Counted from the stretch's first letter, positions 6,525-62,556 are shown. The stretch is 64,000 nt of DNA from Raillietiella orientalis (GCA_036172245.1 JAYWIR010000002.1:6324001-6388000); one strand, 5' to 3'. The notes: generated by a model not told the origin, from the letters alone. A program made the numbers and translations.

Positions 6525-8930
6525 CGCCCAGTTGTGCCGGGGAGTTAATTCATAAAAAATAAACATACAGGTCAGTGGCAGGACCAAGCGTCCTGCCACG
6601 TTACATCTATATACGAAAAGGAACCTGCCGAGAACCGGCGCGCAACCCGGCAAGGTTTGCCTGGGCAGCAGAGGGGGATGGGAAACAACAAAAAAATAAA
6701 ACAAAAAATCCAAAAAATTGGGAGGGTTCGGGAAATGGTCACCACTGTCTGCTGGAGGGAGTTTTCTGCATCCTTAGCAGGATGCCGGCAAGTTCCTGTT
6801 TTAAGGTTTCTAAATGGGGCCATCTTGACGCTATCTGCATGAAGATGTTAGCAAAGCAGCTGTCGTCCCTGTCGTCCTGGCCTGCTCGGTCATTGCTCCA
6901 TGCAGCCACGATCCTGTGTAGGCTGCACAGTGATGCTAGGGATGCGGCTGATGTGGGGGCGTCGTGCAGGAGGAGGAGCTTCGAAGCGATCTAGGGTTGC
7001 CTTCAGGGATCCTCAGAGACACGGAAATCGGCTCCCACAAGGGATGGAGGACAACACAATCCATGAGCAGGTGCGGAAGGGACTCTCTTTCCCCGCACCT
7101 TCTGCAGTTCGGGTTCATCTTCTCCCCCCGGGTCCAGTGGTGTCGACGGGCGGTGCAAGGGAGGCCCCAATGCAACAGTAGGAACGTCGACTATTGCCAC
7201 TTCAGAGGGAAGGATTGCACTGTTCCAGTCCGCTGTTTGGTTGGTCAGACTCATGCCCGAAAACTGCTCTCAGCTACCATCCTGCTCCAGATCGGACCTC
7301 CAGAATCTCCGTGGAGTATTTTCCCGTTACCTTCAGGATCCGTAGCCAAAGAATAGGCTCCAAAGAAGCTCGCTCCAAGAAACTTCTGAGCTCCTTCTTG
7401 TCGCGAACCTCCGACTAGCCGGAAGACGGAAGCGCAACCTGCAGCCCTTCGACGACCGAATGCCAGAGAGCAGGAAGGACTCTGCCCCAGAGGCTGCCGA
7501 CGTTTGAGCGCCACCCATCTTCAGAATTGCGAGTGAATCATTGGAGGTTTCATGGAGGATTCTTGACCATCAAATCGCTGTTCATGGAGACCAACAAGGC
7601 CTTTCCGGATGCGCGTCGCATCAGCCACCGCAACCCGAAGCTCTGACGGCGCCACTCCTAAGCATGTGTACCCATCTCCGTGATCCAGTGCTTGGACGCT
7701 TCCGTCGAACTTCAGTTTGCCTCGCTTCCCTCAGTGTGATCTCGACAAAGAACAACGACGCAAGTCTATCTGGGTCGATGGGTAGCCTGACTTTTCAGCA
7801 CTGATCATGGGGCAGGTGGGAGGTCCATCTCGTGTTCCAGCTACCATGGGAGCCATCTGCACGGGCTGGCACGGAGTCGAACGACTCACCCAGCGAGGGA
7901 CGGGAGACAAGTGGAATGGTAGGGAGCTCAGAAGCATCTCTGTTTCCCTCCCCCTGGGAATCCGATCGCCTCTTATGGCTTCTGACTGCTCATGCAAAAA
8001 CGTGTAGACATCTGTATACAGCCCCTTGATGATGTCCTCGGAGATTTCTCTCGCTTCGTCCTCCCTCGGGACCCTCTGTGACGGATCATGCTTCGAACAC
8101 GTTGGTCAGGTACACACATGTTGCGAGGTGATCTTGCAGCGCCACTGAACCTGGTTTGCGGAGCTAAGTTCAGCACGGGGACTTCATAGTAAGGCAAGAA
8201 TCCTCTTTACTAAGGGCAGACGGCCGAGGTGCCAATAAACTGCACTCGAAGTCTAGGAGGAAGGTTTTTCTCATGGAAAGGATACGCGCCGTTGCCTGAT
8301 GATCACTGTTTACGCGCATCTGCTGCTTTTGGCGTCAAAGATAATACTACCATCAGTTCGCTCTTGAGTGCTTCCAAGACGTTGGTGTTCTCCAGAACTT
8401 GTGAAAGATGCTGAAGGTACAGGCATAGCAGCCACTGGATCCAACGCTATCCAGCCATTATATGGTATTCCATTTGATTCCGGGAAGGAATTTTTGGACT
8501 TGTGTGATGCTCTAAAGCAACATCGCCCTGTCTGAGGAATGTGAAATCCTTTCAGACCTTTAGACATGACCGCTTACAATACCTTAAAATCTCGGTGACT
8601 TGTGGGTGATTCCTTTCCAAAGCCTCATACGCAATGTTCGGTTTCTTTGATGGCGGTCTTAGAATTCTTGCCAGTTGGGCCCTGGACAATCTTGAGCCGG
8701 TTGACGAGACACAACCGTCGTATTCTTGCTACGATCCATCGCGTCTATCAGCCTCCTTCCTGGCATGTACTGGTCCAGAGATCTCATGTGCCTTTCAATT
8801 CATTATTGATGGAAGCTCACTTTGAAAGCAGAGCTATTTCACTGTGCCCAACTAGACCGAGCTCAGCGCAGTCGTAGAGTCGTCTCCTCACACCGTAGCC
8901 GCCTCTGTACCTCTGGTCATTCCCTTGCAC
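6525..8930 (-). mobile_element. LINE remnant from RT to 3' end with terminal tag
   Basis: DQYMPGRRLID (~8740-8775, RT Q.GF+PGR-like); HHWTRGEKMNPNCRRCGERESLPHLLMDC (ORF 6936..7175); QIASRWPHLET (~6830); T-rich UTR; AATTAAC then tag TCCCCGGCACAACTGGGCG at 6543-6525. Confidence 0.8.
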
Positions 8931-8979
8931 TTCGTAGGAGGAAGCCACGCTGAGAGTTTTCACCCGGATATGCCGGGGC

Positions 8980-9015
8980 AAAAAATGTGGAACGCTTCAC
9001 GATTTTGCGTGTCAT
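8980..9015 (-). pseudogene. U6: U6 snRNA retrocopy, 5'-truncated (3'-terminal 36 nt)
   Basis: Minus strand ATGACACGCAAAATCGTGAAGCGTTCCACATTTTTT is the U6 3' end (the variant I recall for Drosophila; vertebrate U6 has AAATTCG...CCATATTTT). Insert 8957-9020 is flanked by the perfect direct repeat GGAAGCCACGCTGAGAG (8940-8956, 9021-9037). Confidence 0.93.
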
Positions 9016-9816
9016 GACGTGGAAGCCACGCTGAGAGCCAGAGACGTGGCTTAACGAAACAGCAATGTGTAAGAAAAAATAAATCTTAATCGTGCAGTGG
9101 TATACTCAAATCGCCTCAGTCAGGTAGTTTATTGTCATGACATCTTTTGTAGGACTTTGGGAGTATCATGCTGGGATCTATGAAATCTACAGGGAGAGAA
9201 CATCTTTGTTCATCTTTGCTCTTCATGATAGAAGTAGGCATCATTCTGATCACCGTCAATGGCACCATCGCGTGGCGGTTGATGTTATAAGATGTTTTCT
9301 TTTGTCGGAAGATGTTGAGTTGTGGAAGAACAGAAAGCAATGTGGTTTCTGGCAGGAGGTATCTTCCTCGTATCTCTACGTGGGGCCGTCTCCATCACCC
9401 ATAGCCTCCCGTGATGTACCCCGAATTTCGCTGCTGTCCATCCATCGTACCAGGTATCAGTGCAGAAGTGTAGACTCCGATTGCTACTTCTATATCGACA
9501 ACGTCCCACTGCCTCCCTAGTGCCATCCTACTCCCTATTGGTTTCTGAATTCCTACCGAAGCAAGGAGGTTCGCCGTTGTTCAGAAGAGCTTTTCGTTTT
9601 CCATGAAGAAGGGGAGCGAAAGACCGCAGAACCTGTGGCGCAGACAGGAAGTGTTCAGGAACACAGGATCCGTCACTCGATTCGCTCATGTTCCTCGTCC
9701 GGCGAGGTTGGGAGGAAAATCACTCTGAGCGACAGTTCCATCGTTCCGTGCCGGACTCGACCCTTTCAGGAAAGTGTTCAAAATCGCAGCGGAACTGTTG
9801 AAACACGCGAGGGAAA

Positions 9817-9836
9817 ACACACACACACACACACAC
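9817..9836. repeat. (AC)10 microsatellite
   Basis: Direct reading. Confidence 0.95.
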
Positions 9837-10500: not shown

Positions 10501-10668
10501 TCTCAAGTGCGAATAAACATGGAGAAGAGAGAAAAAAAAGCGGGAAACAGTGTGGAGGGGAATCTGAGATCCCTCAATTTCTAGGCAGAACAATGAAACT
10601 TTCTCTCCATCCCGATTTACCATCATGCGCCTACGACACCTCCACTGGGTCCCGACTTCAGAAGAGCG

Positions 10669-11983
10669 TTCTGTGAACCTGCACACCTCACCCTTCATAG
10701 ATGCGCCGGCAGCGAAGGACTGCTCTCGTTGTTCTCGAGCACCCGTTACAGGATACCAGGATTTGAATTCCCCCAGGTTTCAAGCCTCCCTAGTGGAAGC
10801 CCAAGCCGAGTGTCTCTTGTCCCTGAATGAACTTCAATGGCTGGCGGCAGGAGGCTCTTGAATACTGAGCTGCATCCAGGGAATACGCCCAGAGGAACTG
10901 TGCCCATTGCGGTGCTTCCTACCACGACCTTTAGGAGAAGTAATGCAGGACACGGCGAAGTGGTCCAGCCTGGCCACCACATCTCCCAAGGCCTTGCTGC
11001 AGCACTGTCTGCCCTGAGGGCAAGCCACAACAGCTGCCAGACGGAGACGAGCTGAGAGTTTCCTTGCAACATCGCGGGGGAGGGAGGGACAAAACTTCTT
11101 GGAAGACGCGCGGGTTGGCAGATGCCGCCACTCCGCGTGCTGCGGAGACGGGACTCCTTCGGTGGAGTCCACTTCTGACGAAACTTCTGCGCTCCCTCCC
11201 CAATGCCTGGACGCTTCTGTGTTTCCGCTCTCCTGAGAGCAGGTTATGCTGCTCTTTCCGCACTGGGGTTTCAGGGCAACGAGCACCGGCACCCTCATTC
11301 CCCCCCGAACTGTTGTTCCTGGTGGAGGTCGGCGGAGTCGATCCCGCCGCACCTGCTTTCGGACTGTGGTGCCATGCGGGAACCGTGGGCGGAGGCTGGA
11401 GTCAGCGCTCCCAGGAGACCAGGAGAACATCGCACGCGACCTGCCGCGCCGGTTCTTCGCGCCGGGAGGACTTTCGACGGGCACGGCCATCGCGATGCCA
11501 TCGTCACGGCGCGCCGTGTGCTCGAGAAGGCCACGCGGCGAAGGGAGGTCACCGGGATGGCAGCCGCCCACGTGAGACGGCTGCAAGGTAGTGTCACCTG
11601 CAAGAGGAAGACAAGGAAGAGATCTCCGGCATCCAACGCCGGTCCTGAAGTGAAGGAGCGGCGGACACCGGTGACCCTTGACCCGAGCTTCCCTTTATTT
11701 TATTTTATTTTTTCTCTCATTTCCCACTCCTTTGCGTTCCGCACCTATCCCGGTTCTTGCACATCGATCCCGGTGTATGCGAACCCAAAGACACATTATA
11801 TTTTTCCTTTATTTATTTATTTTTTTAGTCGCCCTCTCCTCTCCCATTCCGGACGTCACGATATCCCGAGTTTGGTATAGGAGCACCCATCCCCTTAGCT
11901 TTTTTTGTCTTACGTAGGGAACCAGCGTGTTCCCAACTGGCTTCTTTTCATAAAATAAACGCCCCGATGTGACAGAGTAGAAA
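10669..11983 (+). mobile_element. 5'-truncated LINE 3' fragment with TSD and terminal tag
   Basis: CSWWRSAESIPPHLLSDC and MAAAHVRR; UTR; AATAAAC then tag GCCCCGATGTGACAGAGTA (11961-11979); TSD ACTTCAGAAG(A/G)GCG at 10655-10668 and 11984-11997 (1 mismatch). Confidence 0.85.
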
Positions 11984-12149
11984 ACTTCAGAAGGGCGAAG
12001 AAGCGTCTCATCTGATAGCGGACGCAGGCTTCTGCGACCGCTATCAGAGTCCATCATCTGAGTCCATTTGCGGCCTCGGAAACCGTGCGCCAAACTTCAC
12101 CTCGCCTTGATCATCTTCCAGGCGATCCCTTGCTCATCGTGTCTTCGAC

Positions 12150-13379: not shown

Positions 13380-14463
13380 CGCGCTTAAGCTGCTGCACAA
13401 GGATTCTCTCGCGCTGCGGCAACTTCAGTGCAAGTCACTGGGAGATCTCCAGGACTAGACGCAGTGGTTTCGGATAGCTGTCTCGTCCACTGCCGCAGCA
13501 CTGTCTGCAAGTAGCAGCCAACCGGAGGGGTGGAAGTTGTCCTGAAACATCGCAGGAGTCGAAAAGCTCCTCGACGACTGCGAAACGAGCGAGCTGGTGG
13601 ACGATGCCACTCTTCATTCCTGGATGAAGGGAACCCTCCGGTGAAGTGACCTGCTCGGTGTGCCTTTCCAGGGAGCCGTGGTTATTGTCCTGTGCGCGGA
13701 GACTTCTGCTTTTCCGCTTCGTTGGAAACCACAGGATTTCCTGCTGTTTCCGCACTGGGAACTTCCAGTGCAACCGGTGCAAGCACCTCGTTTCCGGGAA
13801 GCTGCCTCCTGTTGCCGAACTGCTGTTCCCGCACTTCCTGCTGGACTGCAGCGCCCGGAGGACACGCGGTGGAGACTTGCTTCGACGCTCTGCAAGATAC
13901 TCCTTTGGACTTGCTGTGAGACGGCGCTGTTTGACAGAAGGCGGGCTGAGAGCAGGCGTTGTGAAGGCAAGGAAGCAAAAGGTCAAATACAAGAAACCGT
14001 TTCTCCTCTTCGTGGCTAGAGGAACTCCGGCTTCGTTGAAAATGCGAGTGGCAGGATGTCTGCTGCATAGCAACAGTCCGCGTTGTGGCGGTCATGTTCT
14101 CAGCGAGGGGAGGTCACCTGCATGGCAGCCGTCTTGATGAGGATGGCTAGGAGGTGGTGCCTCGCCTGCCAGAAGTCAAAGAGATCGACACCATACACAG
14201 ACGCTTCTAGGGAGAAAGGAACGTCTTAAACCAAAGACTCCCTACCCTCCAGTCTTTTTTTTATACTCATTCATTTTCTCCTTCCCCCCCTTCCGAAATT
14301 CCCTGAAAGCCGGGCTACGTCTCGAAGGTAGTTCTCCTTGAACTCCTTTTTGCTGCTACAGGTTCTGTACCTGTACTCCGCGTCCCCCGATTTGTAGGGC
14401 ATTGTCCCCTGATTTGTAGTTTATTTATTTTTAAATAAACTTTCCAGCGTGACAGGGTACAAA
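13380..14463 (+). mobile_element. LINE 3' fragment with terminal tag
   Basis: CNRCKHLVSG...ELLFPHFLLDC; MAAVLMRMARRW (~14122); AATAAAC then tag TTTCCAGCGTGACAGGGTA (14441-14459) CAAA; followed by a short paralogous piece at 14490-14590. Confidence 0.8.
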
Positions 14464-14899: not shown

Positions 14900-17313
14900 C
14901 GCGGTGAGGGATGGCACAGCCTCCCTATTGCACCGCATTCAGATGCGGCCTGAAATCCGGAAGAAGACACACAGGAGAAGACACACCCGGAACTCAAATT
15001 ATGCTTCAATCAGGGCAGAGAGCCATTTTTGTCGGGCTCTCCGAAGGGTGGCAGTGAGTCCACGGCCGTGTGTCGTTCCAGGGTCCGCCTGGATGCCGTC
15101 AGAAATCCCTGCTGCCTCTTCCAGTTCGAAGGCGATGGCGCCCTTGACAAGAAAAATCCCCAATTGTGGCTCGGAAATCAGATCGTGGGATTCGCGCTCC
15201 CACCAGTGGGAGACCCTGGATAGCTCTCTGGTTTGGTGCTGGGCAGAAGAGCGGACCTCGGCCGAATGCAAGGACTCACGTTCATCTCGGTGCTCAGTAA
15301 TCTGCAATTCGTTTCCCGAGCGCTCTGGAGGGCGCTCTGGTACTGGGCGGCTTTTCCCTTCTGGTGGAGTCCGGCACCGAGGGTTGCCTTTGACCGGCTC
15401 ACCAACCTCAGCCGGTTCCAGTCAAACCCCGAAGCAGCTGCCACCGCTCTTCCTTTACTGTTGTTCAATGAAGTCACATGACGCCCCTCGGCGCGAAATA
15501 CCTGGCGTATTCCAGAAGCCGAACCCGTCGGCAAGTGCTGAAGAAGAACGAGAAAGCGTCAGCAGAATGAAGTGGGACCACTTCCTCCATTTCGTCGTAA
15601 TGACCGCCGTCTTACCCGGGGAAGACAGAAGACCTCACGGGCAAGAAGGATGGGGGGCAAGCAACAATGGAAAACCCGCAACTTTGGAAGCATCCCCACA
15701 ATTCCCGCGCCTTCGGGAGTCAAGAATGCAGAGACCGCTCCGATCGTGGGAGCAGGCAGCTCACTCTCGTATGGCGACTGGGAACTCCGGTCTGCGAGTG
15801 CCAGCTTACCGACACTTGCAGCCTGCAGACCTGGACTGCACGGCGGATGTCGGGAGATGCAGGTCTTAGCTGGAAGGCTGACGTGGATCCGCTCGCTGGC
15901 AAGAATCTTTCTCCTGCAGATGCTGATCGGTGTCAGCACCACCAGACGTTCCACTCCTTCCGGGCACGCATTTGTGGGGCTCACTTGAAGTCTACGATTC
16001 CCACTGTCGTCCTGTCGGAGACTCGCTGACAGTCCTTCACGACAGTGAGTCTCCAGCGAGTGTCCTGGCTAGCCGGCTAGCCTGGCTAGAGAAGTGCTAC
16101 AGCAACCCCTGGATGCGTTCCTGCGTGCCTCCTCGCCAGTCTTGAAGCCGGAACCGAAGAACTTGCGCCTTTCCTCTTGTGTTCCGGGTTGAACGGTGAA
16201 AAGGTCCTCGAGCTGAGAAGGTTGGGAAGGACGCGTAACAACCAAGGCGGAGAAAGGATGGCCTATTGGCCCGCCAAATTCAGCGCTCAGATAAAAGAAA
16301 CTGTTGGCACGTGAGCGAAGTTGGAGGAGCCCAGCTGGGAGCGGTGGAATTGTCGGCATCCAGTCCCCCTGCTCTCTGCGGAAGATCCTGGAGAGTCCCG
16401 ACATGAGCACGTGGGTGAGCAGACCACCCTCGCGTCAACGATGCTCTTCCTGAGGAGGGCACTTGTTGGCAGACAGAGGTCGATGTGGGAAGTCTCCTGG
16501 GAGATCGCAGGCACGCGGAAGCTGATGAGCGGATGGACAATGGGGAAGCTGGCGGATGCTGTTACCCCGAGTGTCCCTCTACGAGGATTACAGCGCTGGG
16601 ACGAGCTGCTCGGCATCCCATTCGAAGACCCAGAGTGGCCCACAGTGCTCAAGGACAGTAGCGCCGTCCCCCTGAAGTGCCCAGAGTCGGCACTTCTGCA
16701 CTGGCGTCATCCTTGCAACGCACTCCGACACCACTGGACGCCGGGGAGCGCAAGCCAGGACCGTCGCAGGTGCGGGGAACAGAAATCCCTCGCGCACCTG
16801 CTTGTGAATACCGTGTTGCCTTCAGGTCACTGCAGGAATGCTTTGGCACGACCCTGCGGACCCCCCGACGGCAATCCCACGGACGTTCTACAACTCCTCT
16901 TCACGCGGGAATCCCTTTCGCCAGCCGCAGCCTTTGCGGCTCTTTGCTGCATCCGTGAGATCGTGGCGGTCTGGAGAGACGGTGAAGAGGAATCGAGCGA
17001 AGCGGACGCCCCACCCAGCTTGCAGTTCTTTTTCTGCGGACGGAAGCCAGATGGCTTCACCTGGGACCTATTCAGACGGACATTGCCGGCATCCCGGAAA
17101 GGATACTCAGGCCTCACCAGGGGGCAGTGATTCCTTCCCGACCCTCTGCAGTTCATTTTATTTTATTTTATGCTTCTCCCTCCCCTCCGGGCTATCGGAC
17201 AGGCAACCCAGCAGGTCTGTGGACGAACTGAGTATGGTGGGATAACGTGTCCCATCACTATTGATGAGCTTATTTTACATTTTAGTAAACTCCCCGGCCT
17301 GTCCGGGTGAAAA
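14900..17313 (+). mobile_element. Decayed LINE RT-to-3' end with terminal tag
   Basis: FVSRALWRALWYWAAFP...LPLLLFNEV (RT-like), SASAEEE in place of (Y/F)ADD, RRRCGEQKSLAHLLVN; AGTAAAC then tag TCCCCGGCCTGTCCGGGTG (17291-17309) AAAA. Confidence 0.8.
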
Positions 17314-17410: not shown

Positions 17411-17610
17411 TTGAGGAGTCAACACGCACCCTCGGGTGGCGGGAGAGTAGGCGCTTTAACATCGTGTGTTAAAGAAGTGCGTGAGCCGCTATGCATACGA
17501 TGGTTTCTGAGGTGCTTGGCGAATCAAAAAGGCAAAAAAAAAAATAAAAGTTTGAAGGAAAGCAGCCAAGACAGAAAAGAATTCAAACGAATTTCCATCA
17601 TCCTCTCACC

Positions 17611-18862
17611 CTTAGGAAACTCGCCCTCGCGGCGAAACTATGCACCATGCCCTGGTGCACACCAGCACGGCTTCTCGCGAAGAGCGCAACCGGCTGCGAG
17701 GGACTCACATCTTTCCTAGTCGCTCGCGAGAGATTGCTGAGGCGTTGCGAATGCCCACCAACTCCATAAGACGGTTTCTCTGGTGGAGGAGAACACCTAG
17801 ATCTCCTGCCTCCCGCGAACTGCACTGCAACCTGGCTACAGGAGTCAGTCTTCGACTGGAGAAAGATCCACGGTTCGAGCGAGGCGTTAACATTCGCAAG
17901 CCGTTGAAGATCATCCGTAACTCGCAGAAGATGCGGTGGGCCTCGTCTACCCCTCTTGCCCCAGTGCTGCGCTCTCCAAGGAACGCAAAGGGATCCAGCA
18001 AGGTGGGAGGTGACTTGCTTCATAACAGCGAAAACAAAACTTCTGGGGGCGTGGACAACTCGGGAAGTGACGGACGCTGCGACTCCGAGTGTCCCACCAC
18101 ACGGACTTGTACGCTGTGGAGAGCTGCTTGGCATCTCTCCAGAGGTGGCGAAATGGCCTTCAGCGTGCTAGAACAGTGTAACTTTCCCCTTCGTGTGGCA
18201 GGAGTTGGTGTTGCTTGTGTTACATGGGGGAATCCCGTTCAAAGCGCGCCTTCACCACTGGACACGGGGGAGCGTGGACACAGTGCGACAGGTGGGGGAA
18301 GAAGGAGACCATCCCGCACCTGTTGTTGGACTGTGCTTCCCTCTGACCTCCTTGCGATCGCCTCGCGACGATCCTAGGAACCCCAGCGGACGACCCCAGG
18401 GATATTTTCCGACACCTCCTTGTGAGCGGTGCCGCACTGCCGCCAACCGCGTTTCTCGCACTCTGCTACGTCCGCGGAATCCTGACAGCCTGGAATGCGG
18501 GAAGAAGAGGTCGAAATGGCAGGTACGGCACCCGCTGGGCGCGGATCTTCCTGAGGACTGCCTCGAGATGGTCCCTCCTGGGCGAGACACAGACGGAGCT
18601 TGCCAGCGTCCTGATAGGATGCCGAGGACGCCTGGTAGTGTACCGTACCGTGTCCTTTCCTCGGTTCTCCCCCTCCCCGTTTTGTGTGTTTATTTTTTTT
18701 TGCTTTTGTTTTCCCTTTCCTCCACGCTGTCGAGGCAGATCTCGCCAATCTGCGTACCACTCTCTGACAGGTTCCATGCATGTGGTAGAACCAAGTGCTC
18801 TACCCACACCAATGTATCTTCATTGCTTTATGTAATAAATGCCCTGGCATAACCGGGTGAAA
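17611..18862 (+). mobile_element. 5'-truncated LINE 3' fragment with TSD and terminal tag
   Basis: RLHHWTRG... zinc-finger region, LRTASRW end motif; AATAAAT then tag GCCCTGGCATAACCGGGTG (18841-18859) AAAA; TSD AT(C/T)ATCCTCTCACC at 17597-17610 and 18863-18876. Confidence 0.85.
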
Positions 18863-21999: not shown

Positions 22000-23108
22000 G
22001 CATGCACCATCCTTTTGCGCACCACCGGCAACGAAGGACTCTTAGAGTTGCTGCCGCGCAGCTGGCACAGGATAAGGGACTGAAGGCAAATGGCCTCTCT
22101 TCTGGAAGCCATCGCTCTTCTGCCAATCCATGAATCCGGAACGCCTGCAGGCGGCGGAAACACTGGACCGCTGCCCTGGGAGGGCTTCCGGGAGAACTCG
22201 CTCTCCTCCTTCACCCTCCAAGAGAAGTTTTTCGGGACCGGACGAAGTGGTCCCAGATGGTCTTCACGTCCCTCGTCTGCGGTGCCCTTCGCCCTCAGGG
22301 CAAGCGATGGCACTGACACGCCGGCGGCAGGGTGGCAGTCGCTCCCGCTCAGCATTGCAGGAGCGACCGAGCTCCCGGATGGCTGGAGGACGAACGAGCT
22401 GGTGGCGCCGACGTCGCCACTGCAGGTGAAGAGAACTCCTCCGGTGGAGCGACTACTTGACCGTGGTTCCTGCTCCCTGAAGAACCGATGGTCTCTCCTT
22501 TGGGATGTCGACACTCTGGCGTTCGTGCTGTGCTGCCGATGCTTCTTCTGCGCAGGGGTTCCCGACGCCTCGTTTCCCGGGGCATCCTCGAACCATTCCA
22601 GGTGCAGGACTATCGAACGGTTCCTACGCCTGCTTCTGTGCTTCCGGAAGTTCGTCCGGAGATTTCCTGAGCCCTGAGAGCACGATCAAGGATTGGCTTT
22701 GGCGATTCTTCGCGCGTGGGAGTAGCAGCAGCCTGCCTCGTCCTCGCCACCGTGACGGCACTCCATGTGCTGGGGCCTCGGTCGCAGCCAAGGGCGGTGG
22801 CCACCGGCACAGCAGTTTCCTCCGTGGGAACGGCTGCGAGGTGATCCATCTGGAGCAGGACGTTCAGCGCCGCTTCCAGGAATGAAGGAACAGCTGGTGT
22901 CAGAGACCCCTGTCCCTACTTTTGTTTTATTTATCCATTTCTTCCTCGCCCCCTTCCTTCTCATTGCGGACTGCCCCAGGAACGTACCTGTGTGTCGGTG
23001 AACTCTCCTCTCCAAAAAAACCCTCTTCCCGTCTTCGTTTCGGGAACGGCGCTGCCAGGTTGTCCGCTTGTTTTCCTCTTTAAGGAGCGTCTCAGAGTGA
23101 CCGGATGA
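22000..23108 (+). mobile_element. LINE 3' fragment with degenerate tag
   Basis: HSRCRTIERFLRLLL (zinc-finger remnant); T-rich UTR at 22920-22960; tag GTCTCAGAGTGACCGGATG (23089-23107). Confidence 0.65.
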
Positions 23109-23162
23109 AGGCGGGATCGGCGGCGCGAGTCTGCTGGGCCTCCTGCCCTCCGGATGGGCTGA

Positions 23163-26199: not shown

Positions 26200-26593
26200 G
26201 GTCTTCAAGAGCCATAGCTTTACCTTTCCTCCTGCCTAGCTTTCCTGGCTTCCTTTATCCTTCCTTGGTAGCTCAGCATCCAGGAGTGTCTGCTGCTGTT
26301 TTCTCCCTCTCATCCTTCCACTCCCTTTCGCTCCATGATTTTCCCGGTTCTTGTGTGTTGATTCCGGTGCATACGAAGCGAACCCAAAGACCTTTGTTCG
26401 TCCCCCTAGATTTCCCTTTCCGCTGTCTTTCTTGTCCCCTCCCTTCTCACGTTTCGGACATCTCGATATCCCGACCTGCGGTGTATCTATCCCCCACCCC
26501 ACCCTTGAACGTCTTTAGTCTCCGATCGGGAACCAGTGCGTTCTCAACTGGTTTCTTTCCATAAAATAAACTTCCTGGAATAACCCAGTGAAA
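26200..26593 (+). mobile_element. LINE 3' UTR with terminal tag (same subfamily as 10669-11983)
   Basis: 26528-26571 differs from 11917-11960 at 5 of 44 positions; tag TTCCTGGAATAACCCAGTG (26572-26590) AAA. Confidence 0.75.
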
Positions 26594-26599
26594 GGCTTC

Positions 26600-26965: not shown

Positions 26966-26999
26966 GTCGTCTGTCCCCAGGCTTAGGTGTTGCCTCCCT

Positions 27000-32029: not shown

Positions 32030-32224
32030 CTTCATAGTAGGGTTTTGTTTGTATTTCTCCTTTTGCTTGTCCCCTCCCCCTCCGCTGGCGAGGCAAACCT
32101 TGTCGACCTGCTTGCCGGTTACTCGGCAGTTTCCAAACATTCTCGGACGTTGCAGGGCCAATGACCCTATCCAAGGGTGTTTATTATTTTCATAATAAAC
32201 GCCCCTGGGCACCCGTGTGCGAAA
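32030..32224 (+). mobile_element. Short LINE 3' UTR with terminal tag
   Basis: CGCTGGCGAGGCAAACCT shared with the 6525-6720 and 18700 UTRs; AATAAAC then tag GCCCCTGGGCACCCGTGTG (32201-32219) CGAAA. Confidence 0.75.
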
Positions 32225-32489: not shown

Positions 32490-33555
32490 CGCTCGGTCAC
32501 GTCGGGGAGTTTATTTTATGAAAAGAAGCCAGTTGGGAACACGCTGGTTCCCTACGTAAGACAAAAAAAGCTAAGGGGATGGGTGCTCCTATACCAAACT
32601 CGGGATATCGTGACGTCCGGAATGGGAGAGGAGAGGGCGACTAAAAAAATAAATAAATAAAGGAAAAATATAATGTGTCTTTGGGTTCGCATACACCGGG
32701 ATCGATGTGCAAGAACCGGGATAGGTGCGGAACGCAAAGGAGTGGGAAATGAGAGAAAAAATAAAATAAAATAAAGGGAAGCTCGGGTCAAGGGTCACCG
32801 GTGTCCGCCGCTCCTTCACTTCAGGACCGGCGTTGGATGCCGGAGATCTCTTCCTTGTCTTCCTCTTGCAGGTGACACTACCTTGCAGCCGTCTCACGTG
32901 GGCGGCTGCCATCCCGGTGACCTCCCTTCGCCGCGTGGCCTTCTCGAGCACACGGCGCGCCGTGACGATGGCATCGCGATGGCCGTGCCCGTCGAAAGTC
33001 CTCCCGGCGCGAAGAACCGGCGCGGCAGGTCGCGTGCGATGTTCTCCTGGTCTCCTGGGAGCGCTGACTCCAGCCTCCGCCCACGGTTCCCGCATGGCAC
33101 CACAGTCCGAAAGCAGGTGCGGCGGGATCGACTCCGCCGACCTCCACCAGGAACAACAGTTCGGGGGGGAATGAGGGTGCCGGTGCTCGTTGCCCTGAAA
33201 CCCCAGTGCGGAAAGAGCAGCATAACCTGCTCTCAGGAGAGCGGAAACACAGAAGCGTCCAGGCATTGGGGAGGGAGCGCAGAAGTTTCGTCAGAAGTGG
33301 ACTCCACCGAAGGAGTCCCGTCTCCGCAGCACGCGGAGTGGCGGCATCTGCCAACCCGCGCGTCTTCCAAGAAGTTTTGTCCCTCCCTCCCCCGCGATGG
33401 TGCAAGGAAACTCCCAGCTCGTCTCCGTCTGGCAGCTGTTTTGGCTTGCCCTCAAGGCAGACAGTGCTGCAGCAAGGCCGTGGGAGACGTGGTGGCCAGG
33501 CTCGACCACTTCGCCGCGTCCTGCATCACTTCTCCCAAAGTTCGCGGTGGAAGAA
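32490..33555 (-). mobile_element. Inverted paralog of ~10920-11979
   Basis: 32509-33399 appears identical to the reverse complement of 11070-11960; about 11 mismatches over the next ~145 nt; tag TCCCCGACGTGACCGAGCG (32508-32490). Confidence 0.9.
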
Positions 33556-38380: not shown

Positions 38381-39130
38381 CACCCGGTCGCGCCGGGGAG
38401 TTTTATTCAATGTGAAAACAAACAAACAAACGAGCAGATTGGGGACGCAGTTCGCATGGTTAGCAAAAGGTGCTCATAGGAACGGTTCACCCTCAGGAAC
38501 AGCAGCCTCTTTTTTTTGCTGAATGATGGCGCTGGATGCCGAAGATCTTCGACTTCGGCCATCCTCATATGGATGGCCACAGCGAGGGTGACCTTCATGA
38601 CCTTTCTTCGCTGCGCCTCGAGACTCCAGCACATGGCGGGCCGTGACGATCTGACGCGGACGTTACATGTCGCCATCGCAGCACCTGACTAGAGTTCTCA
38701 AAGCTCTAAGAATGGCCGCAGCAAGTTCTCAACAGCGTGCTCCGCGTGCAGGAATGCTGACTCCAGCCACCGTCAAACTTCCCGGAGGGGGCGCTGCAGT
38801 AGAGAAGAAGGTGCGAGAACGATTCGATCGTCCCACATCTGGAGCATAAGGTTCCTCCAGAAACGAGGCACCGGAGCTGATCGCACCGAAATTCCAATGC
38901 AAGAATAGCACCGCCTCGTTCTTCCAGTTTAAGGGTGATACCAAAATGTTTCAATGCAAAAAGGGTGGCTGTCAGCTCCGGCTCCGGGTAAATTTGTGGT
39001 GCCTGCATGCTCAGAGGGGGCAGCGACGCTCCTTCATTCTGAGGTAAGCTTTCCCAATCGGAGGAAGATGCAGGTCGCTGAGGAGTCGAAGGTCACTGTA
39101 ATCAGGCTACGGATGTTTTCTGTTCCATGG
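38381..39130 (-). mobile_element. LINE 3' fragment with near-consensus terminal tag
   Basis: CSRCGTIESFSHLLLYC (ORF 38706..39008); AATAAAAC then tag TCCCCGGCGCGACCGGGTG (38399-38381). Confidence 0.85.
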
Positions 39131-42110: not shown

Positions 42111-42112
42111 CA

Positions 42113-42130
42113 ATATATATATATATATAT
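42113..42130. repeat. (AT)9 microsatellite
   Basis: Direct reading. Confidence 0.9.
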
Positions 42131-43530: not shown

Positions 43531-43539
43531 CAATTCGTG

Positions 43540-50470: not shown

Positions 50471-53400
50471 CTGCAGGATAAACGCAACTTACTAGCTGCA
50501 GGTCTCACTGATGGCAAAACAGATTGACCACTTAAATAATAAATCAGGAAGAGCACCTGTGGGGCCTTCCTTAGTGCATTTCTAAAGAGATGGTAATGAT
50601 GACGACGTCTGAGAACAATGTGCGAAAGGTGGGAATCCATGCGCATGAAGGAAAGCGGTGAGCACATTCCAGCCTCTGAGAGGCACATCAGCTGCATCTC
50701 AAAGGAGGAAAGAGGAACACTCAGCTTCAGACTCAGTAGTTACGGAAACTGAAATGGAGAAGGCGGAGAGGAAGCCGGGAGAGAAGATGTGGTTGGTTGA
50801 GGAAGCTGGACTTGGAGCGAGAGCTGCCCGCTCATCCCTCTAGCTGTCCCTCCCCACAAGCTTTAGGCCTCTGGGTCGCTGGAGTGATCTAGGAGGGCCA
50901 GATGGTCACCCGGAGCTCCGATGACACCCTAATCTGTGGAAGGAGGGCCGTCGCTTACGGGAGGGCCGTCTCTTCGGTAGAATTGGGCGCCTTCTGCCTG
51001 CGGAACCTCTTTCTCTTGCAGAAGCGCCCTCGTTCTGCCCAGGTTTGCGGCCCCGCAGGCCACAAACCCTTCCTCACGCTCTTCTTTCCTGCTGCTCCTG
51101 GATTGTCTCTTCGGTCTTGCCTCTCGCACCCCGGAGCTCGGCGCAGGAGACACCAGCAGTGCGGTCTCTCTGCGTCGGAAGGCGGGAACCCAATAAACCC
51201 GCGCGCTCCCGGAGCCCCCGATCTTCCCGCCGACGTGACAGAACGCGTGTCAGGGAGTGAGCGTGGGTGACTGATCTCCTCTCCCGAGGGGAAGATCCTC
51301 ACTCAATCCTCTTGCTGACAAGCTGACAAGTTCAGTCGGAGATGAGAAACGGCTGGGCCCCCTTTTGCCGTCGAGGAATTGAAAGGTGACGCACGGGCCG
51401 CGCCGGCAAGTGGACGTGGGGAAGATGCCTGTAGCGGGGTGGGGAGTGGAAGGAATGGAACCAGACTTCCCCTTCCCCTTCTCGGAAGGGGTTCCGTTGG
51501 CTCCTGGAAAGAGAAATGGCTGCGCTCCAGCGTACGTGATTGAGAAGAGGTCAAGGGCCCTCCTGCGACAGCCCGGTTTTCGCCCCACGCGCTTTATCAT
51601 TGGGCCACTCTCGCCGCGGTGGTGCTGCCTCACCCAAATAGAGTCTTTGCTTGCGGTAGGATCGAGAGGCGGGAGAGGCACCGAGCTGTCCCCATCAAAC
51701 CTCGGAAGCCCCTGGAAGAGTGGTGGGCGGGCCTTCGGGCTCGCGCGCGCGTGGACGTCGCGGGAGACGCGGGAGGGGGTCGGCGCCAGCGCCCCCTCGG
51801 CCGTCCACGCTAGCGCCAACTTACCGCGCGCGGGGGGTGGGTAGGAGCGGGCTGGCTTGCCCCTCGCGACCCGACTTGTTCCGACGACCTCTCTCCACAG
51901 ACTCAGGACGGCAGGCAGCCCCTGGGAGGGCGCGTCCAGTCGGAGCCACAAAGGCCGCGGGAACCCTTCAGCGCTCCCTCCTCCCTCGTTCGAAAACAGC
52001 CCGCGACGCAGAGCGCGCCCTCCAGCGTCCTCGGTCTCTGTTCCGTAGTCAACGGTGACTTCCTCTGCTGACGATCAGCAGCCAGGAGGCTTGAAGGCTC
52101 CCAACAGGTGGCTGCAAGGGGATGAGCTTCCTGACCCGTTTCTGGGGCTCCAGGTGGGGTCGCCAAGGGTGCGGCGCCCTGAAAGATACGTTCGGCCAGA
52201 CAGGAGGATCCTCCTTCGGTAGGAGAGGGCGCTGCTTGACGGTCCGGAGCTCCCGGAGGAGCGAAATCGAGTAATGAGCTCGCTTCCGAGCTGCTTCCGG
52301 GATCCTCGATGCGGGGAGGGACTCGGGCAGGGTGTGTGTGGGTAGGGTGTCACCGTTGTCGCGTCTCCTTCTACAGCTGCCTCTCTTCCTGCTTCCTCGC
52401 CCAAGCCCTCGTGACATCGGGCGGCACGGGAGCCGTAAGAACGGTTGCCGGCAGCCTCTCTCTTCCAGATAGTCCTTCAGAATGTCCCTGGAGGTTCCCC
52501 CCTGGCGTACGGGTGCCAGGAACCGGCTCACGGCCCCGTGCGCCTCCCACCCCATCCGGCGATGATTCCAACAAATGGAACGGGACTCTATCCCGGCGAC
52601 AATCCCGTTTGATTCTTCTTTGATCATCGATTTCCAATTCCCCAAGTTTCGGATTGCTCCCTGATTAATTTACACAGACTCTTCCCGTCCCGGCCGTTTC
52701 ATCTGCAGGGTCGTTTCCGCTCGCGTCCCGGACGCTTCCAGCGAGAGTCGCTGCAGTATCTCGGCAAACCGAATTCACTTCTCCCTCCTCTTCCCTTCCC
52801 CCCCTCTTCTTCTTCCCTTTCTTTTTCCTTTTTTTGCCGAGCTGACGGGAAATCCGCAAGCGGGCGCGGCACCAGCGAGGAGCTCTCGGGCGTGGGCGTC
52901 GTCTCACCGACGTCACACTCCTCTCTTCCTTCGTCTCCTACTCCCTCCTGTCCAAGTGCGGCAGTTCTTTGGCCAGCGCTCTACCCTTAAAGGTTTAGAT
53001 TCGAGCTTGCCCGGCGTTCTCGTCATCGCCTTGGGGGCTGTCCAGCTCCCAGACTCTACGGAGACATCTGGCAGGGCAGTCATGGCGCTCCCTTGCTCCC
53101 CTCCGCGGGTCGGCGGCCACTTTCGGAAGCGGACAGCGTATCAACAGCAGGGAAGGGAGGTAGGTGTCCTATGCCAGCGAACCGCCGAAACATGACCGAG
53201 CTGGGAGGCAGGAGGGGAACGGGCTGCCCCTCGAGTCCTGATTTGCTGACTTCGCCCGGGTAAGCGGAAGATCAGGTTCAGGCTGCACCGTGGTCAGTCT
53301 CCTCATCTCCCCCATGGCCCAGCAGAACTGTGGGAGGAAACTCCCTGCTTTACAAAAATAACTCTCCTGGAGGAGCCGACCTGCCCTGGTCAGACACCAC

Positions 53401-55899: not shown

Positions 55900-58145
55900 C
55901 CGCCCCTTCACCAGCTGGAAAGCCTCAGCATCTTTTGCTTTCCTGGGCTTGCCCTTTCCTTTCTCCGCCCGAGGCGGCGTCGCCTGAGAATCGCCCGGTT
56001 TTCCACCAGTCCATGCGGAACTCTTCGAGCCCTGGCAGAAGACATCTCCCTGATTCCGGTTGCTCGCGTCATTTTCCGTTTTTTTTTTTGGTTTGTTTGC
56101 TGCCGCGATTCTCGCGTCCTGGAGCGACCGGGCATCACGAAAACCGCCCGGCAGTCGTTGCTAAAGCTCTCGTTCTCCCCTCTTCCACTTGCGCCGGACC
56201 CAATTCGGCAATGCCGTTCTTTGGTCAGCCAAGAGACGACCCTTCCTCAGTTCCGGTGTCCAAGCCGCGAGGGTCCGCGAGGAGATGGAGCCCTCCTACG
56301 GCTTCCAGCATTTCTCGTGCCGCGCCATGCTCCCCCCCTTCCTATCTGCGGCTGCTCCGGGCGGCTCTGCTCCCGGATGGGTTAACGGCACACCTCCGGT
56401 CTGATGTATCCGCAAGGACCGCAGAGACTGTCTGGCTGCCGACTCAGCCTCAGGAGCCAGCAGATCCATGGGCATGCGACCGAGCTGCCCGTCGCCTGGG
56501 TTCATCCTGCCGGGCAGCGGGGAACAACGTGTGAGTTTGCAACCGGAAGTGGAGAGGATTACGACGGTCTCCTCCGATATTCCTCGCCCCTGCGTGACCG
56601 TAACACGGGTGGCACCAGGTGCGCACCACGGGAAGAGCCAACCAGAAATGCAGCCCGTCGAGATCTGGTGACGCACGGGGGGCGATGGACAGGGGCGGCT
56701 GAACGCGGCGGAACTTGAGACTGCCACGTGGCGCCAGGTGGACGCGAGGCACGGAATACGTTTTCAGTTTGCGGAAAAATCCGTACGCAGGATGGCTGTT
56801 CAGATTCCCACCGGGGGAAGACGATCAAGGCGCATAGGAGGTGCCACGGCAAACGAGTGTTCTTGAACCAGCAACCTTGCTGGGAGAGGTTGCCGGGAAT
56901 CTTGCTTCCGCTCAGCGCACCGGATCAATCGAAGGCTGTAAGAATACATGAGGATCCCAGGATGGGGTCGAGATCGCCATCGACGCGGGAAGACCTTCCG
57001 ATGAGAAACGAAACCACCACCCTCCCTTCAAGGAGCGAGCCGGATTCCCTCTTTTCTGCGGGACGGAGCGCCTCTCCCGGAGAGTTCGGAGTTTCCCAAA
57101 GACGGCGGGTGTGCCATGCGAAGGCTCCTGGAAATTCCGTCGTTCTCCTAGAGACGGTGCCATCCATCGCGCCTGCGCACTTATAGGAGAAATCCCAGGA
57201 GGTGCCAGGGCGCCTCCTGGGACTCTCGGGACACGTCGCGCGTCCCTCCCTTCATCGGCGGAATGCCTGGACGGCGTGGATGCTCCTGTAGAGTGGGAGA
57301 TAGGACGCACCCTCCGAGGACTCCGTTGCTCAGACGAAAAAGAAGACGAAGAGCCCACAGAGGCCGATGGAATTCCTCTGCGCTGTCCCGTACGAACTGC
57401 GAGATCTTGGAAGCCTCCCGACGGACGCTTCCCTCCTTTCTCTTCCAGTGGCACCGAGACCTCGCTCGAATATCAGCCTGAAGGAAAGGCCTCCAAGGAA
57501 CGCACCCGCTGCGGAAGAGTGGGCACCACTTCCTCTCTGGAATGCACCGGAGAATACAGCAGGGATGCGAACGCATCCTACAGGGGAACGATGCAACTTT
57601 CCGCCAACCACCCGCAGGACCTTCTCAGAGCAAAGTCGACCTGCCCCGGGGGGTCTCCGGCTGCATTCATCGCCTTGTGACTCCTGACACGCGCGCGCGC
57701 ATCGCGGAGGCTGCCCCAATCGAGGAAGGGTGACGGCGTCACCATGGAGGACCGTTTGAGATTGCCATCGATCTGTACGCAAAGGGGAAAAAGCGGCCTG
57801 AAGAGTGGGACTGCCGGTAGCAACTCTCCGGCAGCTGCGGGCCGGAGGAGGTGTGTGTGGTCTCCAAGGCATGGATAAGAACGAGAGGAAGATGTCGAGA
57901 CTTTGGAGATGACCTGTCCCGACGCAGGACCTCGGAAATCGCGCTCATTACCCGCGAGGGCCAGTCCATCCCGTTCCCTGTTCATTTATTTATCACTGGC
58001 TTTCCTTCCCTTCTAGCCAACCCTCTCCAGCCTGGTCCTCAGAGAGGTCGGTCCCTTTCGTTTCCGAACTGCAGATCTTGGCGCTCCCCGACTGCAAAGA
58101 TTTTATTTACTTATTCTAAATTAATGACCCCGCGATTCGGGAAAA
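55900..58145 (+). mobile_element. Heavily decayed LINE ORF2 remnant with 3' UTR
   Basis: RIARF (RID+F-like), KGLQGTHPL (RG.RQG.PL-like), WIRTRGRCRDFG (KYLG-like); UTR at 57970-58125; AATTAAT then GACCCCGCGATTCGGGAAAA (shortened tag-like). Confidence 0.45.
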
Positions 58146-59311: not shown

Positions 59312-59907
59312 CACCCGGGTGCGTTGGGGCGTTAGTTTAATGTAAAAGTGAACCTTTACAAAGACCACATGGATTTCAACGGGAACCTGCCGGTATGTAG
59401 GTTTGCCACGGAAGCAGTGAGGAGGGGGAAACAAAAACACAAGGAAACAAAAATAAAAATAAATAAATAAACTTTAAGGGATAGTGGGGTGAGGGAAGCG
59501 GTCACGTTTTGCTGGGGGTGGTCCTCCGCATCCTTTCGAGAATGACAGCAAGCTCTTTCTGTATGCAGTCCTTCAAGTGGGGCCATCTTGTTGCCATCCT
59601 CATGGAACTGACGGCGGAGTGGATGTGAGACCCCTGTCTCTGTGCCCTCTTCTTGAGCCGCTCCAGACCGCTACAATTCCGTGTGGCCAGCAAAGAGCTG
59701 CTAGCGAGGCCGCGGGCCTAAGGGTGTTGCGAACGAAAAAGGGTTTCAGAGTGTCCCTGGAGTTGCCGCCGGGGGTTTTCCTTTGGGTCGCAGCAAAGCA
59801 TTTCCAGAGGGGCCGGAGGGCAACACAATTCACAAGCAGATGCGGGAGGGATTCGCGCTCCCCTCATCTGGCACAGTTCGGGTCCACACACCTTCGTGTC
59901 CAGTGAT
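59312..59907 (-). mobile_element. LINE 3' fragment with terminal tag
   Basis: GERESLPHLLVNC, MRMATRWPHL; AACTAAC then tag GCCCCAACGCACCCGGGTG (59330-59312). Confidence 0.85.
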
Positions 59908-60248
59908 GCTGGCCGCCATCATAGCCATTACCATGGCAGCCGCCTTCGTGAGGACGGCTGCAAGGTGTCCCCATCTGCCAGAAGTAGTCGCCAGGGAGAT
60001 TGCCAGCATCCCGCTCCAGCTGTAGGAAGAAAGGAGCAGCTGAAACTAAGGATCCCTGTCCCTCTCCTTTCCTTTTTTTTTCACTTTATTTACCGTTCCT
60101 TATCTCCCGCTCCTGACTCCCTTAGGAGCCGGACTGCAAGCTAGTGGTCATCCTCATTGTTGTATTTTTGTATTTAAGGAAAACCACCCCATCTGAACTT
60201 GTAATGTATTTATTTTTAAACAAATGTTCTGAAGTGACCGGGTACAAA
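59908..60248 (+). mobile_element. Short LINE 3' fragment with terminal tag
   Basis: MAAAFVRTAARCPHLPEVVAREIA; AACAAAT then tag GTTCTGAAGTGACCGGGTA (60226-60244) CAAA. Confidence 0.8.
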
Positions 60249-60299
60249 GCAAAGGGACCCGTGGTTTCGCCACGCTTCACGTGATCCTGGAGATTCTTC

Positions 60300-60750: not shown

Positions 60751-61029
60751 CGAAGAAATTCGCTGGAGGAAGGATCTGTGGGGTCGGCAGAGCTCAAATG
60801 ATGGTCTTTGGCTTGGCTTCACGGGTGTACACGAACGTCGGATCAGGTCTGTTCAGGCTCTGCATGGTGGCAGGAAGAGAGAACCCTTTGACATTTTGCG
60901 AATTTCGTGAAGGACATTCAGATGTGATTCTCTGGAAAGACAGTGCAACTGACAAATGCTTCTTTTTCTTTTTTGAAAAAGAGCCGTTGATGCTGAGGCG
61001 TTTATTAAATAGAAAATAAACCAGTTTGG

Positions 61030-61600
61030 AACTCGGTTCCCAGCCGAAAACAAAGTTTATTTGGAGGGTTCACCGACATGCAGGTCGAGATTTCTAAAAG
61101 TCCGGAACGAGAGGACGGAGAGCGGAAATAAATGAATAAAGTGGAGGGTGGAGACGAGGGTCTTTGGTGTGTCTCGTTCCTTCTTGGAAAACCGGGAAAC
61201 GTCCGGAACGAATGGGAAGGGACAAAAGATGAATAAACGAAGGATGGGTGGGAACAAGGGCTACCGGTTCCATCGGTTTCTTCCTTTGACAGGAGGCTCT
61301 GGATGTCAGAGATTCTGTCTTGACTTCCTCTTCAAGGTGAGGCCACCTAGCAGTCGTCCACACGTAGGCGGCTGCCATACGGCTGCCCTCCCTTCGCAGC
61401 GTCACGCCCAGAACGTGGCAGGCCGTGATGACGGCGTAGACGGAACGAATCGTCATGATTCCTGTGCTGGTCGAGAGTACATCGGGCACGAAGGATTGCT
61501 GCAGCAAGTCACGGGCGTGTTCTTCTAGCGCAGGAGTGCTGAAGCCAGTCCTCTGTCGCAGTTCTTGGAGGCCGCTGCAGCCCAAAGCAGGTGGGGACGG
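61030..61600 (-). mobile_element. LINE 3' fragment
   Basis: MAAAYVWTTARWPHLEE; UTR ending AATAAAC at ~61055 followed by an imperfect tag. Confidence 0.7.
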
Positions 61601-61689
61601 TTCGGGACTGTAACCCTCCCCTTCCATCCCCAGAAAAGAGGGTGTAGGCGCTGATTGCATGAAGAATCTCCTACAGGATTGAATGCAGT

Positions 61690-62556
61690 GGTCCCTGATA
61701 ACCGTCACACCTCTTGCTGCAGCGCTGTCTACCCTCAGGGCAAGCAGTGATAGCAGCCAACCGAAGGGGTGGGAGTTTCAAGATAACTGCAGCATCGTAG
61801 GAGTGGAGAAACTTCTCGGCGGCTGCGAGACGAACGAGCAGGTAGACGGCGCCACTCCTCGTCACCAAGCGAAGGAGCTCCTTTGATGGAGCGATCTTGG
61901 CATGTCCCTGGATGGACCCGTGATCCCTTCCGCGTGCGCCGATATTTCCGTGTTCCCGCTCTGTTGAAAACCATAGGATGTTCTGCTGTTTCCATGCTGG
62001 GGGAGTTCTGGCGCAGGTACCTCGCTTCCGGAGGAGTTGCCGTTTCCGAGCTGTTCCAGGTTCAGGGAGATGGAATCGTTCTTGCACCTCTTGTTGAGCT
62101 GCAGCGTCCCGGGGGGCACGTGGCAGCGAATCACTTCGGCGGTCCGTCGACCGCAGGACCTTTCCGCTTTGGACCCGCTGCGGCTCTTCTTCACACAAGG
62201 CGGACTGAAGACGGGCTCTGGGATCGCAACCATCTGTTGCATCCGCGCCATAGAGATAGTCCGCGTTGTGTTGGAATCTCGTTCGCAGAGAATGGAAGTC
62301 ACCATGGCAGCAACCCTCATGAGGACAGCAGCAAGGTGACCTCATCTTCCAGAAGTCGCCAGGGAGATTGCCACGGTTCAAAGAGGTTTCTAGAAATAAA
62401 AGAACGTCTGGATTGGAAGCCGGCCTGCGTGCCGGTAGTTATCCAGGATGAATTTGTTTTTTTCTTTGGTATTTCTCGTGTTTGAGGGGGACTCTTCTTC
62501 CCTTCTTACTTGTAGTTTGTCTTTTTAAATAAACGTCTCAGTGTCTCCGGGTGAAA
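61690..62556 (+). mobile_element. LINE 3' fragment with terminal tag
   Basis: CSRFREMESFLHLLLSC, MAATLMRTAAR; AATAAAC then tag GTCTCAGTGTCTCCGGGTG (62535-62553) AAA. Confidence 0.85.

Follow-up and report, generated by a model that had tools for sequence, protein, structure and literature searches.

A conserved and probably functional 19-nt 3' terminus in one superfamily of L1-like retrotransposon remnants from Raillietiella orientalis

What is the meaning of a short motif that closes retroelement after retroelement at the place where a poly(A) tail would be expected? The question is raised by a 64,000-nt stretch of the Raillietiella orientalis genome (GCA_036172245.1, JAYWIR010000002.1:6324001-6388000; the window), in which an initial annotation had noted a 19-nt tag at 13 retroelement ends. 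Our analysis, which covers both strands of this single window and the dead copies of long interspersed elements (LINEs) in it, indicates that the motif is real and that it forms the conserved, probably functional 3' end of L1-like non-long-terminal-repeat retrotransposons belonging to one superfamily. The consensus of the tag is GCCCCGGCGTGACCGGGTG followed by 1-4 A, with GACCGGGTG-A(n) as its conserved 3' half. We somewhat favour the reading, weighed below, that the reverse transcriptase (RT) of the element used this tag to set the start of reverse transcription.

Each of the 13 strings listed initially is present exactly once in the window; the coordinates of the minus-strand copies had been those of the high end, and on plus-strand numbering these copies start at 6525, 32490, 38381 and 59312. 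Tags are named here by this lower coordinate and the strand. With a position matrix derived from these 13 sequences, 14 matches of at least 16 bits were found in the window against a mean of 0.08 (maximum 1) in 100 dinucleotide-preserving shuffles scanned on both strands, and 15 matches of at least 14 bits against 0.6, so that the enrichment is real. Leave-one-out scores ranged from 7.8 to 22.0 bits and reached at least 13 in 11 of the 13 copies. Three further copies, at 8961-8979(-), 56116-56134(+) and, in a decayed state, 60981-60999(-), came from the matrix scan and from an inventory of AATAAA-like signals. The window thus holds at least 16 copies, mostly 5'-truncated, old and belonging to at least three subfamilies, or about one tag per 4 kb. 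The sole match of at least 14 bits away from an element end, 31500-31518(+) with 15.8 bits, lies at the edge of a foldback repeat. The arms of this foldback (30607-30774 and 31491-31657) are inverted, 156-168 nt long, 93% complementary and about 740 nt apart; the tag-like sequence is on the inner edge of the right arm and has neither AATAAAC nor a T-rich context.

The immediate surroundings of the tag are also stereotyped. Usually the tag starts 1 nt past an AATAAA signal: among the 16 copies, seven are preceded by an exact AATAAAC, four by a version with one mismatch or a 1-nt shift and two by a version with two mismatches. The proposal that AATAAAC or a variant stands directly before the tag therefore holds for 13 of the 16 copies but not for 8961(-), 23089(+) and 56116(+), which show no recognisable signal. 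On the other side of the tag, the run of A is 0-4 nt long and never exceeds four consecutive A in any of the 16 copies, in agreement with the view that a short A-run takes the place of poly(A); at least two A occur within the next 4-5 nt in 12 of them. The long poly(A) and the A-rich start of the target-site duplication (TSD) that mark relaxed, mammalian-type L1 were not found at these ends.

To delimit the insertions, a repeat of the 3' flank was systematically sought upstream of each of 14 tags and, for comparison, at 400 random control positions. The best duplication is a perfect 17-nt repeat bracketing a 64-nt insert that ends in the tag and AAAA (8961(-)); a score of 17 was reached by 0 of the 400 controls, and a score of at least 15 by 1.75%. 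At a threshold of 12.5, duplications were detected for 5 of the 14 tags compared to 7.25% of the controls (binomial p 0.0023). Those of 8961(-) and 23089(+) are the strongest, and in the latter both mismatches are G/A differences inside CG/CA dinucleotides; the three further candidates, at 6525(-), 11961(+) and 18841(+), are weaker. Between the tag and the duplication, the five candidate cases have AAAA, A, AAA, GAAA and T, and the duplications themselves start with CTCTC, AGGC, ATTA, ACTT and CAAC. Because these starts are not A-rich, the terminal A residues belong to the element and not to the target. Priming through A/T annealing is not evident, and the target is unlike the TT/AAAA site of mammalian L1. 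The duplications lie outside the tag and its A(n), as the initial annotation had stated, which places the tag within the insertion and rules it out as a target-site motif. The copies thus combine a common 3' end with variable 5' truncation and with duplications of variable sequence, the pattern of a LINE.

The tag is better conserved than the remaining 3' untranslated region (UTR). Over 90 pairs, from which one converted pair (see below) was excluded, mean pairwise identity is 0.61-0.62 in the ungapped tag, 0.60 in the 20 nt before it, 0.48 in the next 20 nt upstream and 0.42-0.44 in the UTR more than 40 nt upstream, which is the random level (0.42 for random 20-mers). Relative to composition-matched shuffles, identity is in excess by +0.154 in the tag, by +0.078 in its neighbouring 20 nt and by +0.039 in the 20 nt further upstream. 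A 3'-terminal block conserved across diverged subfamilies, as is typical of stringent recognition, is therefore present. Given that the copies are dead, what is seen is the constraint that acted on their active progenitors; no other block of the UTR is as well conserved as the tag, which speaks for selection while the lineages were active.

This conservation could be only apparent if the copies descended from a few related masters and a functionless tag owed its similarity to chance, to its short length or to local differences in mutation or alignment. The sampling of one window of dead copies, the lack of covariation and the finding that the adjacent 20 nt also exceed the composition baseline are all compatible with such an explanation. 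However, the C-terminal ORF2 peptides of these elements differ by 44-74%, their UTRs are at random-level identity beyond 40 nt, and a CpG-rich tag would be expected to decay faster than its surroundings, not slower. We consider a functionless tag very unlikely. The decay itself was only partly as first described. Differences from the consensus affect 81 of 304 cells across the 16 copies, and 54 of these are transitions, including 28 G>A and 18 C>T; CpG decay is visible in 17 of these 46 changes, but most of them lie outside CpG positions.

Translated sequence identifies the carriers independently of the ends that the tag defines. Regular expressions for a zinc knuckle and for R[WC]PHL, applied to the six-frame translation of the whole window, produced 11 matches in nine elements, and all 11 are located 258-626 nt upstream of a same-strand tag, which ties the tag to a coding remnant. 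In the translated upstream regions, the knuckle C..CG..ES.PHLL..C is visible in six to seven elements, with R[WC]PHL nearer to the tag; the latter motif was first pointed to by a noisy tblastx self-comparison and then checked by the regular-expression search. One fragment, at 6939-7190(-), matches zf-RVT (PF13966) with E=0.0016 and 19.5 bits, under the gathering cut-off of 27.5 bits. A profile of seven ORF2 fragments compared with PDB gave only four matches, all to the C-terminal Cys-rich region (residues ~1110-1177) of human LINE-1 ORF2p and all weak, at E 0.7-1.5. CCHC motifs are reportedly present in other LINE clades too. The TSDs and the ORF2 C-terminal remnants together confirm that the tags are retroelement 3' ends, and the protein similarities point, weakly, to LINE copies with an L1-type ORF2 C-terminus. 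Of the L1/Tx1-like lineage that had been proposed, the L1-like part is thus weakly upheld by the upstream coding remnants. As for the Tx1 part, the downstream flanks are mutually unrelated instead of sharing one specific repeated target, and since they differ at every copy, there is no Tx1-type site specificity.

Wider searches added little to this assignment. The Pfam scan covered 419 of the 471 open reading frames (ORFs) of at least 80 aa (119 of at least 150 aa and 300 of the 352 of 80-149 aa), with 6 more at E<=1 and 46 left out; no scanned ORF of the window contained a curated Pfam domain. Neither Rfam at gathering thresholds nor a tRNA scan gave any match in the whole window. No relatives of the carrier protein were found among longer proteins with the query P0003 or with the seven-fragment profile, and the only match of P0003 in a full-library phmmer search (E=3e-4), to a 4282-aa protein through 35 matched stretches, was judged uninformative. 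In the ESM Atlas, 11 of 30 matches fell in the zf-RVT family set, without a useful taxon. The motif pattern occurred at seven metagenomic loci, on GC-rich contigs and without the T-rich/AATAAA context, which we read as chance, and in viral contigs it had 0 matches. Other identities were considered and rejected. A terminal inverted repeat or a Helitron end is countered by the A-run, the TSDs and the ORF2 remnants; hairpin terminators of a GC-rich giant virus are countered by the absence of long ORFs and Pfam domains; and a 3' stem-loop of the tRNA-like or histone type has neither a fitting context, as judged by eye, nor an Rfam match in its favour. The window (G+C 56%, observed/expected CpG 0.88, no N) seems to be gene-poor repeat DNA of near-normal CpG content.

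The initial annotation had described the tagged elements as diverse and had suggested that the tag might be a separable adaptor. An alignment of the last 160 nt instead reveals a shared layout, in which a T-rich/poly-pyrimidine tract, a GC-rich box, a variable hairpin, a T-rich stretch, AATAAAC, the tag and A(n) follow one another, and it resolves three subgroups (A, B and C) and some singletons. Among the fragments from the ORF2 C-terminus, identity to the sequence that heads their alignment is 26-56%. Since the carriers have their ORF2 C-terminal motifs as well as their UTR layout in common, they are, as far as these alignments reach, deeply diverged subfamilies of one LINE superfamily rather than diverse retroelements. 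A shared tag is what common descent and selection predict for one superfamily, and the main argument for a separable adaptor is thereby removed; nothing else favours it, and the tag was not seen on an unrelated body. No SINE-like carrier (short interspersed element) was recognised in the window. Longer poly-pyrimidine (CT-rich) tracts lie at 1918-2340, 31296-31348 and 52774-52837, and shorter similar tracts within the LINE 3'UTRs; apart from the poly-pyrimidine arrays, the window has only three short tandem arrays. Repeats that bear no tag, at 67-84% identity, are 41601-41838/44233-44445, 4714-4994/49041-49323/29574-29818 and 24774-25003/50178-50393.

Two inverted pairs of copies bear on whether the tag is templated by the element body at all. 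The pair 10915-11977/32492-33553 is 98.5% identical overall and 100% identical over an interior of about 880 bp, but its tags differ at 5 of 19 positions, about 10 positions differ in the first 150 bp, and the identity ends at the first base of the tag. The pair 15447-17104/27230-28887 is 99.9% identical and ends 187 nt before tag 17291(+). Both are roughly symmetric about position 22,200, and they look like the outcome of gene conversion between old inverted copies or like an assembly effect; the alternative, that bodies and tags were inherited separately, has nothing else in its favour. A tag that was pre-existing target sequence, or an adaptor template-switched from a separate RNA, would account for the abrupt end of identity in the first pair. 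However, the 5' 150 bp of that pair have diverged as well, which fits conversion of the interior, and of the five positions at which the tags differ, three are CpG transitions. Furthermore, the location of the TSDs outside the tag and A(n) excludes the target as its source, and the tag holds a fixed place within a homologous UTR architecture. We give very little credence to a non-templated tag.

Table 1. Tags, the short insert with its TSD, ORF2 remnants and upstream hairpins in the window (coordinates in nt from its first letter)
Feature	Position	Strand	Subgroup	Details
Tag	6525..6543	-	A	candidate TSD 16 nt, 2 mismatches, 7228-7243 / 6508-6523
Tag, newly found	8961..8979	-		21.5 bits; then AAAA; AATAAAC absent upstream
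Insert of tag 8961(-)	8957-9020	-		64 nt; perfect 17-nt TSD 9021-9037 / 8940-8956
Tag	11961..11979	+	B	candidate TSD 14 nt, 1 mismatch, 10655-10668 / 11984-11997
Tag	14441..14459	+	C	listed copy
Tag	17291..17309	+	A	perfect 5-bp stem potential; then AAAA
Tag	18841..18859	+	A	candidate TSD 14 nt, 1 mismatch, 17597-17610 / 18863-18876
Tag	23089..23107	+		TSD 18 nt, 2 mismatches, 20617-20634 / 23109-23126; insert ~2.47 kb
Tag	26572..26590	+	B	listed copy
Tag	32201..32219	+	A	weakest, leave-one-out 7.8 bits; possible indel
Tag	32490..32508	-	B	inverted partner of the 11961(+) element
Tag	38381..38399	-		top matrix score, 23.3 bits; then no A-run
Probable tag, newly found	56116..56134	+		17.1 bits; T-rich tract before; without AATAAAC
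Tag	59312..59330	-	A	listed copy
Tag	60226..60244	+	C	listed copy
Decayed tag, newly found	60981..60999	-		12/19 as consensus; AATAAAC at 61000-61006; subgroup-B-type upstream hairpin
Tag	62535..62553	+	C	listed copy
ORF2 C-terminal zinc-knuckle remnant	6939..7190	-		530-563 nt upstream of tag 6525(-); Pfam zf-RVT match about 400 nt upstream of it
ORF2 C-terminal remnant	11212..11877	+		upstream of tag 11961(+)
ORF2 C-terminal remnant	16543..17127	+		variant knuckle; 17291(+) element
ORF2 zinc-knuckle remnant	18182..18343	+		upstream of tag 18841(+)
ORF2 C-terminal remnant	38709..39092	-		intact C..C...H....C knuckle; upstream of tag 38381(-)
ORF2 C-terminal remnant	59603..59863	-		upstream of tag 59312(-)
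ORF2 C-terminal remnant	61977..62336	+		upstream of tag 62535(+)
Second hairpin, example	6574-6598	-		
Second hairpin, example	17235-17257	+		
Second hairpin, examples	11996-region equivalents			

Taken together, these observations suggest, with a probability that we put at about 0.55, recognition of the stringent type, whereby the RT of the element reads the tag and initiates target-primed reverse transcription from a defined position. Under this model, selection in the active progenitors would have kept the tag, and in particular its 3' half GACCGGGTG-A(n); the RT would recognise the tag in the RNA, either as a hairpin of 5 bp with a 5-nt loop or as plain sequence, and target-primed reverse transcription would begin directly behind it, in contrast to priming at arbitrary points within a long poly(A) tail. 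The retention of the tag across subfamilies, the fixed short A end and the non-A duplications jointly point to a start of reverse transcription at a place that is defined by the tail. The presence of the tag without AATAAA in 8961(-) and 56116(+) indicates independence from the poly(A) signal.

Several findings weigh against this reading. The data are confined to dead copies within a single 64-kb window and, because none of these copies is intact, the case for L1 membership and for activity depends on a weak similarity at the C-terminus. Neither an RT nor an endonuclease domain was detected (no RVT_1 in the 419 of 471 ORFs of at least 80 aa and the 6 more that were scanned), although, with copies that are short, 5'-truncated and decayed, the absence of the RT from the window says little. 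At one homologous 3' end, AATAAAC (27006-27012(-)) is followed not by the tag but by unrelated sequence that matches it at 6 of 19 positions. This untagged end (26980-27012(-)) belongs to subgroup A, has the usual UTR layout and bears a different short hairpin-forming sequence at the place of the tag; it could be the result of a deletion or rearrangement or could represent a subfamily with another tail. Mismatches are also unevenly spread over the tag: positions 1-7 (the 5' arm) show 31/112, the loop shows 31/80 and positions 13-19 (the 3' arm and TG) show 19/112, and, judged by these counts, the core of the tag is its 3' half.

When the best-kept copies are folded, they form the proposed hairpin, a stem of 5 bp closed by a loop of 5 nt, with -6 to -8.7 kcal/mol. 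However, none of the five stem pairs (0/5) changes on both sides in the 16-copy alignment, paired cells amount to 76.3% compared to 77.7% with shuffled partners, and several copies have GTCTCAG as the 5' arm, which makes full pairing impossible. The stem-loop inferred initially thus exists in the consensus and in the best-kept copies, but the alignment provides no sign of selection on pairing. In other words, the hairpin is, so far as these copies tell, a property of the consensus without evolutionary support, and the compensatory changes that go with a stringent-type hairpin were not detected in the tag. A second hairpin, of 6-11 bp, lies 26-36 nt upstream of the tags, and its stem sequence differs between subgroups. 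Comparison by inspection of the 6525(-) and 27012(-) elements, both of subgroup A, shows two adjacent double-sided changes in this stem, and its folding z-score is modest (-0.81 vs -0.16 in controls). This second hairpin, rather than that of the tag, may be the actual structured element of the tail.

A further point against RT recognition is that the tag ends at a fixed distance of 20 nt from AATAAA, which fits a cleavage and polyadenylation site equally. The tag might, then, be mainly an element of 3'-end formation, that is, a spacer between AAUAAA and the cleavage site, perhaps with a hairpin that fixes cleavage; it would have been kept since it allows the element to make its own RNA 3' end anywhere, and the RT would simply set out from where the poly(A) begins. 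The canonical distance from signal to cleavage is 10-30 nt, and the tag with its preceding C, at 20 nt, falls inside this range; AATAAAC or a variant with at most two mismatches precedes 13 of the 16 tags, and a U-rich tract lies upstream of the signal. The same layout of T-rich/pyrimidine sequence and AATAAA is described in PMC5381506 for the 3'UTRs of non-mammalian vertebrate L1. On the other hand, two or three tagged copies (8961(-), 56116(+) and 23089(+)) have no AATAAA-like signal, and the A-run does not exceed four even where the TSD is perfect. Runs this short still require a fixed start of the RT beside the tag, so that 3'-end formation leaves the need for positioning in place. We therefore view 3'-end formation as the main role of the tag as possible but on the unlikely side.

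A bolder version of RT recognition can also be formulated, namely, that a lineage of the L1 superfamily exchanged poly(A)-dependent priming for an obligatory, portable tag, GACCGGGTG-A(1-4), that remained unchanged while ORF2 and the UTR diverged. We regard this as quite unlikely. If it were true, gaining the tag would be enough to mobilise any RNA, SINE RNAs and cellular transcripts included, and the lineage would be a natural intermediate between stringent and relaxed recognition among LINEs.

A tail of this kind has already been described for L1-clade LINEs (PMC3472496), and the window family is no new type of element. Ohshima (2012; PMC3472496) reported, from monocots and Chlamydomonas, L1-clade LINEs whose 3' end is conserved and has a hairpin and proposed, there and in a 2013 review (PMC3747384), that stringent recognition is ancestral in the L1 clade. 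The literal motif was not found in published papers, a comparison that did not extend to the supplementary tails of Ohshima 2012 or to Repbase/Dfam. The closest parallel is the monocot group 1a (LINE1-1_ZM, with ZmSINE2/ZmSINE3 and sorghum SINEs; PMC3472496), in which the 3' end is likewise far better conserved than the rest (divergence of 0.144 over the last 45 nt vs 0.570 overall), has hairpin potential and was read as a sign of stringent recognition. However, the monocot elements show compensatory stem changes, a conserved loop and flank, SINE partners with the same tail and poly(A) repeats, whereas the window family has a stem conserved without covariation, no recognised SINE partner and an A-run that does not exceed four. 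Among the 15 families of green-algal L1 in Table 1 of Ohshima 2012 (PMC3472496), two end in (A)n, eight in other repeats and five in none. The window family resembles the (A)n-less members and the pair L1-1_CR/SINEX-3_CR of Chlamydomonas (PMC3472496) in having no long poly(A) and a shared tail sequence; the sequences are unrelated to those of L1-1_CR/SINEX-3_CR as far as can be told, the published tails not having been compared.

In the stringent L2 elements UnaL2 of eel and ZfL2 of zebrafish, as related in PMC3472496, a 3'-terminal RNA element sets the start of the RT, as we infer here; in those accounts, these elements belong to the L2 clade, have an experimentally proven hairpin and end in repeats such as (TGTAA)n, whereas the window family ends in A(1-4) and is known from sequence. 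In SART1 of the silkworm (PMC3472496), a 3'UTR element and terminal A residues similarly give a precise start of reverse transcription, but SART1 belongs to the R1 clade, is telomere-specific and has a real poly(A) tail. The L1 elements of non-mammalian vertebrates, as described by Boissinot & Sookdeo 2016 (PMC5381506), share the poly-pyrimidine and T-rich 3'UTR and AATAAA; there, AATAAA is followed by a poly-A tail, and here, by the 19-nt block and 0-4 A. Finally, for human L1/Alu, a 3'UTR stem-loop read by the L1 RT before the A-tail has been proposed (Grechishnikova & Poptsova 2016; PMC5135761); it has 8-10 bp and a bulge, is computational only and leaves the long poly(A) in place. For annotation, the tag and the AATAAAC that accompanies it sharply mark where copies of this abundant repeat family have their 3' ends and how they are oriented. 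Set against these systems, the window family joins, as an apparently clear case, the few L1-type LINEs that carry a specific 3' tail instead of a long poly(A), and it bears on whether, as Ohshima's model holds, stringent recognition of the template is ancestral for the L1 clade.

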